A DNA stretch of 28,928 nucleotides, from NCBI GenBank assembly GCA_030630095.1, contig DAOVNW010000001.1, positions 1-28,928 of the forward strand. Direction: 5' to 3'. Shown here piece after piece: positions 461 through 16,348 of the stretch; position 1 is the first letter of the stretch; the number at the start of each line of letters is the position of its first letter. The notes beneath the pieces are model-generated. The model saw only the letters and a program-made list of their open reading frames with translations, ran no database searches and was not told the DNA's origin. The position numbers and the translations under genes are program-made. The DNA is from Candidatus Omnitrophota bacterium (GTDB taxonomy: Bacteria > Omnitrophota > Gorgyraeia > JAGLLT01).

Positions 461-2452
461 TTAATATTTCCCTAAAATATATTTTTTTATATCACGTTTT
501 TTAGAAGTGATAACTTTTTGTTTTTTCTCATCTGATAATTTATCAAAAAACTTGTCTTTTCTTAGTTTAAGTAACTGATTAGAATATATTTTATTAAATT
601 CATCATTAGCTTTTTTAAACTGTTTCTCACTTACTTTACTTTTAAATTTTTGTATTTCTTGAGTTTTACTTTCGCTCCAATCTTCTGATGGAGTATAAGC
701 AGTAACGTTGATACCAAGACCATCCGCAATTAAACCCGCTAATTGCATTCCCATTGGTTCATCTTTAAGTTCATGGATATTTTCTATTGTAATTGGAACT
801 GTAAGACTAACGGTTTCACTTTTGATAGTAGGTTTTTTATAATCAAAGGTTTTTTGTTTAATAATGTTTTTTACTGTTGCGGTAGCAGGAGCAAACTTGC
901 CTTCTGTAAAATTCCATATTACATCCATTCCGTCTTGAGTTCCATATCCTTCCCCAAGTTTTTTAGTAATACCTGTTGTCGTGCTTGTTGTTCTTTGCGA
1001 TAATATTTTAGCCGCTAAAACAACAAGACCGCCCATGCCGCCAGTAGGGTCAAATCTTACCCAGCCAATTCTTATTTTTGCAAAATTAGAGCTGGTAGGG
1101 TTAAAAATATCCTTATTATCGTCTGGCCACAAAGTTTGAGCGATTTTAAGCATAACCCCTAAAGAAGAAACCACTGTCAAAAGATTTAGTGCCGCTTGTT
1201 TTCTTACAAATTCAGATTTACCTGATTTGAACATATCTGTTAAAAAATCAATATCTGATTTTACTTTTTTAATAGAAAAAAAAGTTTTATTTATTGCTTT
1301 TTGCCCTTTTTCTCCTAACGGGACTTTACCTCTGCCTGTCATGCTATTAACTAGTTGGTTTATACTGCCAGTTTCAAACTTATCAGTTAAGGCAACGCCG
1401 TTTTTTTCTGCCATATCATACATTTTATCGGCAACATCAACTCTTAATCTCATAGCCCCTGCTTCATAAGCTACTTCTGACGCTCTAAAACCTCGCCCTA
1501 AAACAGGGATTTTACTTGGGAATGATGTAGGAAATTCTTCTTCACCTGTACCAATATCAAGTTTTCTACCTAATTCATATCTGCCATTAAGATAGTTTTT
1601 TCTTGAATATATCTCTGCTTTTGTAGCGTCAATTATAGCATCACCAGCTTTGTTGCCGCCTTTTAGCGTTTTATAAATATCACTCCAAGATTTAATGAAA
1701 TTTCTACCCCAATCTTTAGCGTATCTCGGGTTTAATAATACTTTTATACCTTGTCTGCCAAAAAAACTGTTGTCATAAGATGCTTTTAATGACCTTGAGT
1801 TATCTGCAATAAAATTAGCCGCTACCTTTATATCCTGAATAACAGCGTCTGCTTTGCTTAAAATACCTGGTCTTTTTAAAGGATTAACAAGTTCGGCTTT
1901 CGTTGCTTTAAGTTTTAACGCCCCTGTATAATTATCAAGAGCAACTTTTGAAGCACCAAAATCAAGCCCGTCTTTAGGTGTTTCCCATGTAAAATCAGGG
2001 TTCATTTTTTCTCTTGCTATGCTCGTATTTTGTGATAATTCCGTTATTGTTTGAGCTTCTTCAAGTGTAACGTCAGCTTTATACTTCTTAGAAAAAACAT
2101 CACTGGTTATTTCGTTTAAAAATTGTTCGCTTTCCTTGGGGTCATAAACCCTTCTTTTTTTTTCTTCATAAGTTTTTTTTATTTTTGCAGTAGTGGCAAT
2201 TTTTTGTTCTTTTGACATACCAGTTGAGTCTTTTACCCAATCTACCATAGCTCTTTCTTCATTTACAAGTAACGATTTCTTTTCAAATGAAAGATTTAAC
2301 TCCTTAGCGTCTGCATTTCCTACAATTTTAGCCAATAAAGACCTTCTTGCCACAGAAGTCATAGCACTTAATTTATCAGGATTTAACTCACCACGTTTTA
2401 AAGCTTTCTTTAATGCTAATGCTTTATCTTTAGGTAAACAAAATATTGCCAT
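461..2452 (-). CDS. Putative internal virion/DNA-ejection protein (last of four)
   Basis: 663-aa Lys/Ala-rich helical-type ORF. RBS AGGAG overlaps the upstream TAG. It lies after the adaptor and nozzle genes, where podoviruses encode ejection proteins, and has one moderately hydrophobic stretch (AALNLLTVVSSLGVMLKIA). Function is inferred from position. Confidence 0.6.
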   Translation of the reverse strand: MAIFCLPKDKALALKKALKRGELNPDKLSAMTSVARRSLLAKIVGNADAKELNLSFEKKSLLVNEERAMVDWVKDSTGMSKEQKIATTAKIKKTYEEKKRRVYDPKESEQFLNEITSDVFSKKYKADVTLEEAQTITELSQNTSIAREKMNPDFTWETPKDGLDFGASKVALDNYTGALKLKATKAELVNPLKRPGILSKADAVIQDIKVAANFIADNSRSLKASYDNSFFGRQGIKVLLNPRYAKDWGRNFIKSWSDIYKTLKGGNKAGDAIIDATKAEIYSRKNYLNGRYELGRKLDIGTGEEEFPTSFPSKIPVLGRGFRASEVAYEAGAMRLRVDVADKMYDMAEKNGVALTDKFETGSINQLVNSMTGRGKVPLGEKGQKAINKTFFSIKKVKSDIDFLTDMFKSGKSEFVRKQAALNLLTVVSSLGVMLKIAQTLWPDDNKDIFNPTSSNFAKIRIGWVRFDPTGGMGGLVVLAAKILSQRTTSTTTGITKKLGEGYGTQDGMDVIWNFTEGKFAPATATVKNIIKQKTFDYKKPTIKSETVSLTVPITIENIHELKDEPMGMQLAGLIADGLGINVTAYTPSEDWSESKTQEIQKFKSKVSEKQFKKANDEFNKIYSNQLLKLRKDKFFDKLSDEKKQKVITSKKRDIKKYILGKY

Positions 2453-2460
2453 TATTTCTC

Positions 2461-5154
2461 CTAACAGGTTATTGAATCTACAAATTTATTCCAGTCATAT
2501 TTATTTGGTTTTGTTTTTGCCATTTTTTTCTTTAAAGAATCTTTTAAAGTGCTTTTTATTTTTTCAGGGTTACGACCTTTTAATTTCTTTTCAACTACCA
2601 TTTCTCTGGTTTTTGCTATTTCTTTTATTTTAGCAGTAGCAGAGTCTGGCGTTCTTTCTGCTGATAACCTTAGCGTCTGGGCTGCTGCGCTTATTTCTGT
2701 AGCTATAGGCGAATTAGCTAAATCCATTGCCAATTGACCATCTTTGGTTTGCATAGCATAATCTTCCATTACCTGTAAAGCTGTTGCGCCTTTTAATCCC
2801 TCTGGCAAGGCTTCTCTACCAGTTGCAATTCTTTTAGCTTTCTCAATATTCATTCTCATTATAGTAGCCATTTTATCAGCCTGTTCTTTAATAACCGCAG
2901 GAGTATATTCAGCTAATTCATTGAAACCTTTATCAATTAAACCTTTTTCTACAGCTTTGGCTTGAATGCTTTTTGCTACACCACTAACTTTTTTAGGTTC
3001 TTCTCTCGGCTTAAACGCCTCTACCTTTGCTTTCTTAGGTTCAAATGCCTTAACTTCCGGCTTGTGGGCTTGCTCAGATGTAGACAACTGCAACAGTTGT
3101 GTTTTGTTTAACCGTTCAACAATCTTACTCTTATCAAGAGGTGTGGCGTGTACTCTTACACGCCTACTTATTTCATAAGTTCCATCAGGTTTTCTTATTG
3201 CTTCTAATACAACCTTTCCGCCTTCTGCCGCATAAGTTGCAAAACCTGTTTTACCAAGAATAATGTCTACTTCATTTCTTGTCGCTCCATAAGGCTTATA
3301 AACGATGCCTCTCTCTGTCGCAAGCGTAGGATCCTTTAGAGATAACAGATATTCTGTTAATTGTTTTGCTTCTGCTCTATTTATATCTAGCCCCTGTCTC
3401 CCAAGTTTAGAACGACCTACTTCACGGAGCAACTCTTGTGCTGTTTTAAACCTACTGCCTTCTTCTTTCACCAAACCCTTCTTGGCTTCGGCTTCTAAGG
3501 AGACTGGGGCTTTCGGTTTAAACGCTTCAAGAGCAGGCTTTTCAGCAGGCTTATAGATATTATACATTCCTAAATTATCAATATCATCAGCTTTAATAGC
3601 GGCCTTTACATTCTCAAGTTTAGTCAAGGCACTCTTAATCGCCGCCGGAGTAGCTTTTCTGTCCGCTATAGGTGTCATATTACCAATAATATCGCCTGTG
3701 AGAGTCTTTTTAAGGGTATCTAACTTGATTCCGGGAGTCTTTGCTACACTGGCAATAGCTTTGTCAACCTGGGCCACGCCAGACTTAGGCAATGCTTTCA
3801 CTATAGGCTTAAAGGCTTCTGCGGGTTTAATATCTTTAAAAGTTTTCTTAATAACTGGTTTAAATGGTTCTGCTTTAGGCGTAACCTTAATGGGTTTTTT
3901 TAAAAATTCTTTGGTTAGTTTCTCATAAGCAGCATTGATTCTTATAAACTTCTGGGTAGCTTTTATCGGGTTTTTAGGATTTTTGTCTGGATGCCATTTA
4001 ACTGCTAATTTACGATAAGCACTTTTTACCGCTTGCGGAGAAGCCCCCTCTTTTAAGCCTAACTCCTGAAAAGCAGTTTTAGGCAGAGCTTTAAATATAT
4101 TTCCTACAGGCTCAAAGAACATTTTTCTAAGAATAGTGTCTGCTTTTCCGCCTGCTTTTAATACTTCCTTTTGAAAGAACGGTTTTTTTGCTAATGTTCC
4201 AAATATAACTGGGAATGCTTTTTGAATACCATACATTATTGCATACGATTGTGGTTTAGTGAAAAACTCCGTCATACCACCCCAAAAATCATACGCAAAC
4301 TTTTCAATATTGCCTTTAGGGTTTTTTAATTCAGATGGTTTTTGGAAGTCTTGCGGGTAATTGAGTTGACGTTGCATTATTTCATCCCAACCCATAGGAT
4401 TACCCTCGATGTCTCTTTGCATAAATTCTTCTTCTGTTATGCCTAATCTATCATCTTTTTCACCCCATAAAATATCTTGCGAAGCACCTTTAACTCCTTT
4501 AGGTAATTGGAATAATAACGCATGTTTTAATGCTGATTGATTTTCTTTTAAAAGCGTAGTTATATCTTTTAAAGGTTCTCCCAATGGAGTTATAAAATCT
4601 ATAGGTTTTATTCGGTCTCCAAATATTTTTCTTGTTATTTTTTGCCTTATTGTTGGTTTCCAAGGACTGATTGTTCCTGCGGTGGGCTGTGAGTAATAAC
4701 GTCCGTCTTTTCTTTTTGTTATATAATAACCGGCTTCTTTTTCTCCTTGTTCTGTTAAATGAAAAGTGGGATGTTTACGCCCTTTTAAAATTTGTCCTGT
4801 TTCCGGGGTTCGGCTTGGCCAATGGCCTGTTTCATCAGGGCTTATACCGTATTTTTCCGCTGTCTCATAATCATAGCCAGCCCCCTCTGGATCAAACTTT
4901 TCAGTAGCTTCTTTAGGTAGAAATACCTCACCTAATGCCTTTGGTAGTTTCTGCAATAAAGAAGGAGTCTTTTGGATATGAGTCGGAGGCACATCTCTAA
5001 AAATAACAGTCCTTATATTTTCATCAGAAGCAGAGTCGTAATCCGGGTCTGATTTTATTGTAAAATCATACCAATCCTCTAAAATAAGTCGCTTTTTATC
5101 AGGATCAGCTTTTTGGTAGTTTTCATGCTCTAATACTTCGGACAATCTTGTCAT
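2461..5154 (-). CDS. Large multidomain putative ejection/internal virion protein containing a DnaJ J-domain
   Basis: 897-aa ORF with an ATGA overlap with the upstream gene. Residues ~362-415 read AFQELGLKEGASPQAVKSAYRKLAVKWHPDKNPKNPIKATQKFIRINAAYEKL, a J-domain. Lys/Pro-rich linkers separate the modules. Confidence 0.7.
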   Translation of the reverse strand: MTRLSEVLEHENYQKADPDKKRLILEDWYDFTIKSDPDYDSASDENIRTVIFRDVPPTHIQKTPSLLQKLPKALGEVFLPKEATEKFDPEGAGYDYETAEKYGISPDETGHWPSRTPETGQILKGRKHPTFHLTEQGEKEAGYYITKRKDGRYYSQPTAGTISPWKPTIRQKITRKIFGDRIKPIDFITPLGEPLKDITTLLKENQSALKHALLFQLPKGVKGASQDILWGEKDDRLGITEEEFMQRDIEGNPMGWDEIMQRQLNYPQDFQKPSELKNPKGNIEKFAYDFWGGMTEFFTKPQSYAIMYGIQKAFPVIFGTLAKKPFFQKEVLKAGGKADTILRKMFFEPVGNIFKALPKTAFQELGLKEGASPQAVKSAYRKLAVKWHPDKNPKNPIKATQKFIRINAAYEKLTKEFLKKPIKVTPKAEPFKPVIKKTFKDIKPAEAFKPIVKALPKSGVAQVDKAIASVAKTPGIKLDTLKKTLTGDIIGNMTPIADRKATPAAIKSALTKLENVKAAIKADDIDNLGMYNIYKPAEKPALEAFKPKAPVSLEAEAKKGLVKEEGSRFKTAQELLREVGRSKLGRQGLDINRAEAKQLTEYLLSLKDPTLATERGIVYKPYGATRNEVDIILGKTGFATYAAEGGKVVLEAIRKPDGTYEISRRVRVHATPLDKSKIVERLNKTQLLQLSTSEQAHKPEVKAFEPKKAKVEAFKPREEPKKVSGVAKSIQAKAVEKGLIDKGFNELAEYTPAVIKEQADKMATIMRMNIEKAKRIATGREALPEGLKGATALQVMEDYAMQTKDGQLAMDLANSPIATEISAAAQTLRLSAERTPDSATAKIKEIAKTREMVVEKKLKGRNPEKIKSTLKDSLKKKMAKTKPNKYDWNKFVDSITC
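3916..4074 (-). other. J-domain (DnaJ/Hsp40 type) coding segment; HPD at 3985..3993
   Basis: Matches the J-domain consensus across all helices: 'LGL...AS...VKSAYRKLA..WHPDKNP.....A..KF..IN.AYE.L'. Confidence 0.92.
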
Positions 5155-5822
5155 TTGTATTTAGTCTCCAACCTATCTAAAAAACTTCCTTGGGAGCCAT
5201 AACTACCGCCCCCGGTTAGCTCTTTCATTTTCTTAGCAGTCTCAAGTTTCCGGGCCTCTATAATATCAGGCCTCTCACGCCATTTATCGTCAGGGGTCTG
5301 CTCCCAACCTTTTGGGCCGTATTCTCTTTCAAGTCTAAACTGCGCTAAACTTTTCGCAAGACTTTTGTCATATTCTTCGGTTTCTTTTCTTTTAGTTTCT
5401 TGAGCGCGTTTAAAAGTAGGACTTTCACGCCAGCCGGTAGGTGTTTTTTCCCAGCCACTCTGACTGTATTTTTCAGCAAGTTCTTGTTGTGCCTGACGTT
5501 GCTGAAATGCCTCACGTCTCTTGGCCTGGGTTTCCTCTGCAAGTCTGGTTTTTTCTGCCAGTTCTCTTTTTTCTTTCGCCATCCAGCTTTCTCCAAATGA
5601 CGCACGAACAGCAGCCACTGGATCGCTTATTCTTCCTGGTTGGCTATAAACCCGCCTTGTGCCTCCTCCGCCCCCACCTGAGGGCATACTTCTCAAAGTC
5701 AAAGCGCGTGCCTCTAAGGCTAACCTCTGCTCGGCTAAGTCCAGGCTTTTCTTCTCCGCTTCATTTGCTAATATTTGCGCAGGACTCAAGGCCATGGTAT
5801 TCGCGTCAATTCCGTAGGACAT
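5151..5822 (-). CDS. Putative small ejection/internal virion protein
   Basis: 223 aa, charged and helical with no Cys. RBS AAGGAG. Contains two YxxxGWExTP...WRExP repeats. Located in the ejection block. Confidence 0.55.
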   Translation of the reverse strand: MSYGIDANTMALSPAQILANEAEKKSLDLAEQRLALEARALTLRSMPSGGGGGGTRRVYSQPGRISDPVAAVRASFGESWMAKEKRELAEKTRLAEETQAKRREAFQQRQAQQELAEKYSQSGWEKTPTGWRESPTFKRAQETKRKETEEYDKSLAKSLAQFRLEREYGPKGWEQTPDDKWRERPDIIEARKLETAKKMKELTGGGSYGSQGSFLDRLETKYK

Positions 5823-5847: not shown

Positions 5848-6537
5848 TCATGCGTATGTTAGCTGGGGTATGGCAGTAATAGTTTGACCGTAAGTTGATT
5901 TCAAGGCTTCCGCGCCTCGTTGCTGTATATCTCCTACTTGCTGGCCATACTTACTCCATAAATCAGCTACCTGCGCTTTTCGCTTCTCTTTACCGCCTAT
6001 TTTTTCAAGTTCAATCTTACGCCTTAAATCCGCTAACTGGCCAGTCGTGCCGGCCATTACACCACGTGTTTGAGCTTGTCTAAAACCTCCAGGCCCGCCT
6101 GATTCTGATAGTTCTCTCATCTGCGCTTGTGCCCCGGCTTCGATTCCAGTTCTACCGGCTTCATACATCTGACTGGTTTCCTGTTCTCCTATAGCTTGCG
6201 GAGAGGCCGCTAAGCCCTCTATCTGCTGTTTAAACGGGTCTAAGGCCCCTAAACTTGCCTCTTTACCTGCTCTTATTTCAGCTAATGCAGATGTCCTGTC
6301 TGCCGCCGCTCCGGCTTGAGTCGCTTGCATAGCTTCCATAAAAGGCTTATATTGTGAGTCAAATGTTCCTTTAGGCTGGCCCCGGTAGTGCCTGCTTTTA
6401 GGGTCTGAATATGCCCGCTGTTGACGGGCTTCTGTTTCTGCAAGCACCATTTGCCGATTTCTTATATCCATGGGGCTACCTTTTTGATATCCATGTTGCC
6501 TTCCGTAAGCGGTTTCAGAACCAGGTCGATAAGACAT
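5848..6537 (-). CDS. Putative small ejection/pilot protein
   Basis: 229 aa, rich in Gly/Ala/Gln with no Cys. RBS GAGGAGG. It is the first gene after the tail genes, the position of P22 gp7/gp20-like pilot proteins. Confidence 0.55.
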   Translation of the reverse strand: MSYRPGSETAYGRQHGYQKGSPMDIRNRQMVLAETEARQQRAYSDPKSRHYRGQPKGTFDSQYKPFMEAMQATQAGAAADRTSALAEIRAGKEASLGALDPFKQQIEGLAASPQAIGEQETSQMYEAGRTGIEAGAQAQMRELSESGGPGGFRQAQTRGVMAGTTGQLADLRRKIELEKIGGKEKRKAQVADLWSKYGQQVGDIQQRGAEALKSTYGQTITAIPQLTYA

Positions 6538-15533: not shown

Positions 15534-16348
15534 CACATTTGTTATGCTACTGCTACGGCATTTCTGCATAGCTCTGTATGTCGCCATACAGGTCGGACTA
15601 TCTCATCACTCTGATTACTCAGAGGCACATCGCACGAATCAACATAGCGTAAATTTAATTTATATTTCATTGAAGGAATTATATATGGAGTAATTATCTT
15701 AAATAACTTTTTAGCTTCTTCTGTCCCACAAGATAACTTCCAATATTGCCCTTTCTTTGAAACATTAAACTTAACACTAAATCTATCCTCAATTAAATCT
15801 CTAAGGATTTGATTTTCTTCAAGAGTGAAACCTTCCGTGTGTAAACTAATTCTTCTGGAAGATATACGATATACATGATGTTTGTTATATGATTTGCTGA
15901 AACATATTGACCCATCATCCATATACCAAAAAGCAAGCCCTTCATCAGTCAATCTCTTAACGAATTTAGCAAATTGTTTGCTTCTTTCTTTTAATTGAGT
16001 ATAAAGTGGGTGAATCCTTGTTGATACTGTTATACAATCATAGCCCCCACATTTTACCTCTGTTACTTTGACCTTTGTCAAAGCAGAAAGATAATCAGCT
16101 TTAAATTTTGCGTATTCGGCTTGCTTGATAGAATGTGTTATGCGAACACTGACATTTTTGCCTTCTTTTGCTTTTGCAAAACATGCATCGCCTAACCACA
16201 TTCCTATTACTCCGCCCTTGAATTTTCTAATTTTATGTTGATTCATAGTCTCTACACTCCTTACGCAGCTTGCGCAAGTTGGCACGGGATTGTCTCAAAG
16301 AGGTTTTCCCCGTTTTCGGATGTGTTTATACTGGACAGATTGTCGTTT
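15534..16348 (-). mobile_element. Group I self-splicing intron (815 nt, IA-like: ORF looped out of P7.1)
   Basis: P1 exon ACUGGAU/IGS GUCCAGU with U-G at the splice site. P10 GGAU/AUCU. P3 CACAUCCG/CGAUGUG. P4 ACGGG/CCCGU. P6a CUUGCGCA/UGCGUAAG. R element GUAGAGACUA and S element GAUGAGAUAGUCC (P7). P7.1 is 12 bp. P8 CUCUGA-GUAA-UCAGAG. P9 CUGUAUG-GCGA-CAUACAG. Terminal G at 15534. Confidence 0.93.
15542..16246 (-). CDS. Intron-encoded LAGLIDADG homing endonuclease (two-motif type), 234 aa
   Basis: Motifs GVIGMWLGDAC and EGLAFWYMDDGS, followed by 'ISLHTEGFTLEEN..L...I..RF.VKF'. Probable start is the ATG at 16246, with AAGGAG 10 nt upstream. Confidence 0.9.
   Translation of the reverse strand: MNQHKIRKFKGGVIGMWLGDACFAKAKEGKNVSVRITHSIKQAEYAKFKADYLSALTKVKVTEVKCGGYDCITVSTRIHPLYTQLKERSKQFAKFVKRLTDEGLAFWYMDDGSICFSKSYNKHHVYRISSRRISLHTEGFTLEENQILRDLIEDRFSVKFNVSKKGQYWKLSCGTEEAKKLFKIITPYIIPSMKYKLNLRYVDSCDVPLSNQSDEIVRPVWRHTELCRNAVAVA

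Follow-up and report, generated by a model that had tools for sequence, protein, structure and literature searches.

The stretch of DNA analyzed here (hereafter the window) is 28,928 nucleotides (nt) of contig DAOVNW010000001.1, assigned to a Candidatus Omnitrophota bacterium, and carries two adjacent phage genes for proteins of 897 and 663 amino acids (aa), designated A and B. Both genes, like all others of the region, are encoded on the minus strand, on which A is located upstream of B. Each protein contains a single cysteine (Cys), which is the last residue of A and the fifth residue of B. We consider it likely, by analogy with a bond solved in another phage, that A and B together make up a single functional unit, each being one half of it, and that a Cys897–Cys5 disulfide connects the end of A to the start of B. 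The features that constitute the A/B junction were assigned as follows.

2461–5154, minus strand: gene A, 897 aa, a putative polyvalent-type virion or ejected cargo protein ending with ...KFVDSITC (from the translation).
461–2452, minus strand: gene B, 663 aa, starting with MAIFCLPKDK (from the translation).
2464–2466, minus strand: codon (TGT) of Cys897, the last residue and sole Cys of A (from the sequence, translation, and Cys count).
2438–2440, minus strand: codon (TGT) of Cys5, the sole Cys of B (from the sequence, translation, and Cys count).
2453–2463, minus strand: stop codon TAG of A (2461–2463) and the 8-nt spacer (2453–2460), read from the sequence.
2458–2462, minus strand: ribosome-binding site (RBS) AGGAG, which overlaps the stop codon of A, read from the sequence.

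The minus-strand junction reads TGT TAG GAGAAATA ATG, giving 8 nt from stop to start. Read-through cannot fuse A with B, because a second stop codon (TAA) is located in the A frame and B is encoded in a different frame. The original prediction, made from the window alone, had described lone Cys residues at the facing termini of A and B, the 8-nt gap, the overlap between RBS and stop, and the impossibility of a read-through fusion. The translations and Cys counts agreed with it to the base, as did the junction sequence. If A and B each carry one Cys, the probability of finding it at the last residue of A and among the first five residues of B is (1/897) × (5/663), or approximately 8e-6. This is a post hoc figure, and the weight of the case lies in conservation across relatives rather than in this probability.

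Conservation on the A side was examined for the C-terminal portion of the protein, where ~200 aa are conserved among relatives while the N-terminal two thirds are variable.

2464–3093, minus strand: C-terminal module of A comprising its last 210 aa, conserved and all helical, with the last helix ending at the terminal Cys (from alignment A5 and the AlphaFold2 (AF2) model).

The AF2 model of this module showed a predicted local distance difference test (pLDDT) value of 89, and its last helix was assigned to module residues 198–208 of 210. A search using the C-terminal third of A gave 67 proteins composed of 506–1527 aa, most of which share only the last ~190 residues. Sixty-three of them carry their sole Cys at the last, rarely the second-to-last, residue; of the four exceptions, three match only the middle of A and one is a fusion. 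Alignment A5, constructed from 68 A modules, has a single invariant column, which is that of the terminal Cys. Among 1.84 billion representatives, the A-module profile was further matched to 3825 clusters. A Cys is present within the last 3 residues of each of the 145 newly listed top matches, and 142 of them possess no other; only 3 other Cys were counted in 102,451 aa of these A-family representatives. Homologs of B were detected in metagenomes by the hundreds. Among the 119 database matches listed, 108 start with M followed by 0–3 residues, an aromatic or aliphatic residue, and C-[LIV], and this Cys is the sole one in 103 of them. The N-terminal motif is described as aromatic-C-L/I-P, of which Cys5 was an invariant column in B alignments of both 45 and 100 sequences.

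The two Cys residues were next compared in pairs encoded at the same locus. A scan of viral contigs with single-protein patterns gave no matches, and an alignment-based scan fetched 80 IMG/VR loci that show 31–59% identity to B, comprising 75 loci that encode A and B separately (split) and five that encode them in one chain (fused). Starts, stops, and the upstream A module were located anew from the DNA of these loci, independent of gene calls. All 75 split loci exhibited a Cys in the last 1–3 residues of A (C, CX, or CXX before the stop) together with a Cys at residue 3–6 of B. For the 65 non-identical pairs, 66 Cys were counted in 51,912 aa of A, 65 of which are terminal, and 66 in 42,884 aa of B, 65 of which are N-terminal. 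The Cys rate in other open reading frames (ORFs) of the same loci is 0.80%. The co-conservation of the two Cys that the original prediction had called for was hence found in 75 of 75 split loci, with the A-side Cys present in 145 of 145 further representatives. Judged from these sequences, the pattern is far beyond chance.

A conceivable origin of this pattern is chance, or a nucleotide signal at the junction, such as translational coupling or RBS context, that happens to encode Cys. Such a signal would fit the window, where neither Cys codon is more than 30 nt away from the stop/start junction and the RBS shares bases with the stop codon. Across the loci, however, each of the two Cys sites is encoded by TGT in some cases and by TGC in others, and the A–B gene distance ranges from −4 to 602 nt, with the Cys pair kept also at 73–602 nt and, in some loci, with inserted ORFs between the genes. 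The use of both codons and the variable spacing indicate that the constraint acts on amino acids and not on junction DNA, which refutes the nucleotide signal. The pattern moreover holds in hundreds of diverged proteins, and we regard chance or a junction signal as extremely improbable. No clear coupling was detected between how far the A Cys lies from the C-terminus and where the B Cys is located.

Several loci exhibited further ORFs between A and B. In approximately ten related loci (including L002, L003, L006, L008, L013, L020, L027, and L030), a gap of ~90–120 nt contains an ORF of 27–38 aa, which includes one hydrophobic, membrane-span-like stretch and ends right at the B start; it has no counterpart in the window. 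Five loci with 455–602 nt between A and B (L015, L025, L028, L042, and L050) contain inserted ORFs of ~150–190 aa, with the Cys pair kept. Several of these inserted ORFs bear paired CxxC motifs and may be mobile endonucleases. The B frame of L042 is open for only ~130 codons and has no standard start before the Cys, which may be ascribed to a frameshift or an assembly error.

Natural single-chain relatives provided the second line of evidence. For their description, B was divided into two parts.

2108–2452, minus strand: N-terminal domain of B (~residues 1–115), helical, present in split forms only, the proposed docking domain for the last helix of A (from the AF2 model and hidden Markov models (HMMs)).
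461–2095, minus strand: core of B (~residues 120–663, together with the stop codon at 461–463), common to split and fused homologs (from profile matches).

In the AF2 model of B (pLDDT 81), residues 1 to ~95 form a small helical domain, which is followed by a low-confidence linker (residues 97–112). In seven database proteins (P0190–P0196) and the five fused loci (L060, L062, L063, L064, and L068), a single chain comprises the A module together with the B core. Unsplit homologs that lack the Cys pair, whose existence the original prediction had left to be looked for, are thereby provided, as none of these 12 chains possesses a Cys at the A–B junction and 9 of them are Cys-free throughout. Among the others, P0192 contains two Cys far upstream of the A module, and P0196 contains one between the A module and the B core, ~270 residues past the module end. 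Profile tests were performed for ten fused chains (seven proteins and three loci). In all ten, the match to the B profile starts at position 117–127, showing that the fused chains lack the ~115 residues with which split B begins, and in nine the match to the A profile stops 12–30 positions before the profile end. When the N-terminal domain of B and the tail of A were each represented by an HMM of their own, neither gave a significant match in fused proteins. In one fused protein, P0195, the A tail helix is kept at residues ~1615–1627, where a Ser occupies the Cys position (...FINEVKS vs. ...FVDSITC) and the chain continues beyond it. Because the N-terminal domain of B is present only in split forms, it is proposed as a docking domain for the last helix of A. 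The terminal helix of A and the small domain of B are thus dispensable once the two chains share a peptide bond.

The evolutionary relationship between the two forms was evaluated on trees of the B core that included ten fused rows; these were quick trees, and the group for the approximately unbiased (AU) test was named after the first tree had been seen. FastTree gave 6 changes between the split and fused states, at least 5 of which are forced by well-supported branches, and a quick IQ-TREE run gave 7 changes, at least 4 of which are forced. The AU test rejected a single fused clade with a log-likelihood difference of 243 (p = 0.00018). P0191 and P0192 are nested beside the split protein P0039 with high support, and P0194 and P0195 are located near the outgroup. 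On these sequence-based trees, the split and fused states are estimated to have changed at least four times, and both fusion and fission may have occurred. A split ancestral protein rejoined by its terminal Cys had been proposed for A and B. The core of this proposal, that the two proteins are equivalent to one and rejoined through their facing terminal Cys, is well supported by the comparison; the split as the derived state is not, given the four or more changes and at least one fused clade nested inside split ones.

A structural precedent for a bond between such termini is known for cyanopodophage A4 (Anabaena phage A-4L), whose cryo-electron microscopy (cryo-EM) structure (PNAS 2025, PMC12002296) contains a disulfide between Cys1715 of gp27 and Cys5 of gp26. 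We infer the A/B bond by analogy with this one. Sequence alone cannot tell which Cys pairs with which, and the two residues might instead form like-with-like links (A–A and B–B), bind another virion partner, or serve as modification sites, the facing termini being merely exposed. The lone Cys at residue 2 of T7 gp14, which has no facing partner in gp13, is consistent with such a case. We nevertheless consider it unlikely that the two Cys do not pair mutually, since this leaves unexplained both their joint presence in split forms and joint absence in fused forms across at least four independent changes, and the Ser at the Cys position of P0195, where the chain continues. No other virion protein with a matching conserved lone Cys was found, and the A4 link joins two different proteins. 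This reading is further disfavored by the lack of a lipoprotein signal in B and of a Pfam intein domain.

The same conservation data fit any direct Cys–Cys contact, including a non-disulfide link such as a metal ion held by both thiols and possibly shared by several A–B pairs in a ring, which might suit reducing habitats better than a disulfide. Each chain would supply only one ligand to this metal, however, and no conserved His, Asp, or further Cys was located near either site; the sole solved analogous pair, that of A4, was modeled as a disulfide. A metal bridge therefore appears quite unlikely.

Several observations weigh against a Cys897–Cys5 disulfide. The loss of Cys in fused forms partly follows from the loss of the terminal segments, and does not alone prove mutual pairing. 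The N-terminal Cys is missing from eleven of the 119 listed database matches to B; all eleven begin at profile position 13–69, which suggests that their genes were called too short. A disulfide may also be less stable if the surroundings of the phage are reducing. When 50,697 phage records were searched for cultured relatives, with both genes by megablast and with B by tblastn, only a single match of 25% identity was obtained, and the capsid protein of this phage likewise gave only matches of 23–28% identity, no cultured phage being close. For the A4 pair itself, the family HMMs of A and B gave E-values (E) above 0.05 against the A-4L proteins, and hhalign between the B family and the cyanophage gp26 family gave a probability of 0.2%. 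A profile search of the PDB did not find gp26 (PDB 9k3a, chain A) and gave one chance-level match, to a Phi92 protein (E = 0.53). Fold searches with the B model do not list 9k3a either, which is a weak test by itself. As no sequence, profile, or fold similarity was detected, the A4 precedent is an analogy and not a homology. With these points taken into account, the disulfide between the two termini is still the reading that we consider likely.

The only Pfam domain detected in A is DnaJ.

3907–4071, minus strand: J-domain (DnaJ, PF00226) at residues 362–416 of A, with the HPD motif seen in the translation (Pfam E = 2e-16, 60 bits vs. a cut-off of 27.8).

Members of the A family carry different domains upstream of the C-terminal module, including Zeta toxin, ART-PolyVal, DNA methylases, sigma70 region 4, and DnaJ, and one fused relative contains an LPD1 domain together with an N-terminal GH108 lysozyme. 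This composition resembles the polyvalent proteins of phages and conjugative elements described by Iyer, Burroughs, Anand, de Souza, and Aravind (2017, PMC5512222), since the A family also consists of long patchwork proteins with swappable effector domains that are encoded among virion genes. The A family contains several unrelated effector or LPD domains that vary between relatives, as is characteristic of polyvalent proteins, and A itself contains one recognized domain. The family differs from the published description in its Cys-ended C-terminal module and its coupling to a downstream partner, which are absent from that description; the words "cysteine" and "disulfide" do not occur in PMC5512222. 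Foldseek with the model of the A module gave no matches. Three long relatives (P0144, P0147, and P0164, 1389–1527 aa) share only A residues ~254–690, including a module at 561–692. They were suspected from their length to be A–B fusions, which was rejected because they contain the A middle module only and no B part. They also lack the C-terminal module and the terminal Cys, and as they carry the middle module alone, this module is considered to move independently.

Pfam identified nothing in B, and PHROGs added nothing for A or B. Foldseek and VIA-align wide searches with the B model listed only generic helical hairpins (best Z 6.3). Some relatives of B possess extra C-terminal domains, such as the SLT lytic transglycosylase (PF01464) at residues 883–974 of P0019. 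B was also evaluated as a bacterial lipoprotein and rejected, as B and its relatives have only 2–5 residues ahead of the Cys, which offer no hydrophobic signal region or lipobox. A split intein, or trans-splicing between A and B, was similarly rejected, as no Pfam intein domain was detected in either protein and the terminal positions of the Cys leave no room for intein halves.

Two smaller proteins are encoded upstream of A, whose roles are proposed from gene position.

5151–5822, minus strand: 223-aa Cys-free protein directly upstream of A, a putative small internal or ejection protein.
5848–6537, minus strand: 229-aa Cys-free protein, a putative small internal or ejection protein.

Neither protein was matched to a family in Pfam or PHROGs. 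A script-based count gave one Cys for A (residue 897), one for B (residue 5), and none for the 223-aa and 229-aa proteins, in agreement with the earlier claim that the two smaller proteins are Cys-free. All listed ORFs of the window together contain 83 Cys in 8494 aa (~1%). At this rate, the four proteins (2012 aa) are expected to contain ~20 Cys, compared with the 2 observed. The gene order is portal, scaffold-like gene, capsid, several further genes, the four Cys-poor proteins, and an appendage-like gene, with tail genes matched only weakly. The genes around A and B include the portal gene, the gene of the major head protein, which is interrupted by a LAGLIDADG endonuclease gene, and genes of weakly matching structural proteins. 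The LAGLIDADG homing endonuclease gene (window positions 15542–16285, minus strand; PHROG E = 5e-14) comes directly after the ORF of the major head protein. Another ORF, of 111 aa (12083–12418, minus strand), is located midway in the structural block and contains 8 Cys (7.2%), in sharp contrast to its Cys-poor surroundings.

Gene position, the domain content of relatives, and composition lead us to regard A as the carrier of cargo, and B as a conserved core component, within the internal set of ejected proteins, an assignment made without a direct match to the ejection proteins of T7 or P22. The A/B phage probably injects both proteins along with its DNA. A possible sequence of events is as follows. 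A and B would be made separately, after which the last helix of A would dock on the ~115-residue N-terminal domain of B. Cys897 and Cys5 would then form an intermolecular disulfide inside the particle, as in phage A4. The link would join the very C-terminus of A to the very N-terminus of B, and the product would therefore be an unbranched pseudo-fusion. It would share its topology with the homologs that are naturally single chains, and could therefore exit through the narrow portal–tail channel as one thread. The absence of every other Cys would prevent cross-links that create branches or loops. The recognizable cargo of A is the J-domain, which would recruit host Hsp70/DnaK, whereas B would act as the conserved core protein, some relatives of which bear cell-wall-cutting domains. 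Reduction in the host cytoplasm could, speculatively, free the cargo part (the J-domain carrier) from the core part. The redox-sensitive latch of the original prediction, which corresponds to this last step, is pure inference.

It is still poorly understood how podophages pack their internal proteins, maintain fixed ratios between them, and pass them through a channel of a few nanometres. An end-to-end covalent tether fits the evidence, being kept across thousands of protein clusters, replaceable by a peptide bond in fusions, and observed in one structure to date. It points to a physical rule, namely that the cargo must be a linear thread and so may have no other Cys. In uncultured phages, the terminal Cys also serves as a signature by which injected proteins can be recognized from sequence and put in order, and it suggests a release route inside the host for effector cargo such as toxin-like domains, methylases, and the J-domain. 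The type of link is already known from the single A4 structure of 2025. What is new is another protein family, very large and unrelated to that of A4, in which the terminal-Cys rule holds, together with the near-absolute exclusion of other Cys, the split-specific segments proposed for docking, and the repeated exchange between disulfide-type and peptide-bond-type joining. We tentatively extend these features, with less confidence than we place in the A/B bond itself, to a general and repeatedly evolved rule. Tail-to-head terminal disulfides and the exclusion of other Cys would string the injected proteins of short-tailed and crAss-like phages into an unbranched thread for the tail channel, and the reducing host cytoplasm would cut this thread to release the cargo, the split and fused forms being interchangeable solutions.

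The closest known counterpart of A/B is the gp27/gp26 pair of A4, a phage described by its authors as editable. In the pre-ejectosome of A4, the outer ring consists of five gp27 and five gp26 molecules, and the C-terminal helix of gp27 sits in a cleft of gp26 (PMC12002296). Conservation, the exclusion of other Cys, and fused forms are not addressed in that report. In the A-4L genome, we found that the sole Cys of gp27 (1717 aa) is Cys1715, that of gp26 (1114 aa) is Cys5, and the two genes are 5 nt apart; both Cys are kept in four relatives of A4 (Pf-WMP3, Pf-WMP4, TR020, and CHP58). The A/B pair resembles gp27/gp26 in being encoded by adjacent genes, located for A/B in a putative ejection block, of which the upstream product carries its sole Cys within the last 3 residues after a C-terminal helix and the downstream product carries its sole Cys at residue 5. 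The terminal positions and the conserved, near-exclusive occurrence of the Cys that characterize the A4 pair were both found for A/B. The A4 proteins differ in being about twice as long as A and B, and the upstream partner in the present phage is a cargo carrier with a J-domain. The likeness between the two pairs is one of design, which may reflect either very old common descent or convergence.

The comparison was extended to T7 (L086). Its genes for gp14, gp15, and gp16 are flanked by tail genes on one side and the fibre gene on the other, a position that the genes of the present phage appear to share, and their products include, as here, large helical proteins with a near-total lack of Cys. 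This comparison gave no Pfam or PHROG match, and Foldseek of the B model to the core entry 9jyy_G gave E = 0.4 with a template-modeling (TM) score of 0.07. T7 differs from the present phage in having no facing terminal Cys pair. It shares with the B family a lytic transglycosylase domain, which is present in gp16 and in some relatives of B. No Cys occurs in gp15 (747 aa) or gp16 (1318 aa), 2065 aa in total, whereas the only one of gp14 is at residue 2. Since gp15 and gp16 are Cys-free, the avoidance of Cys in ejected proteins seems to be general.

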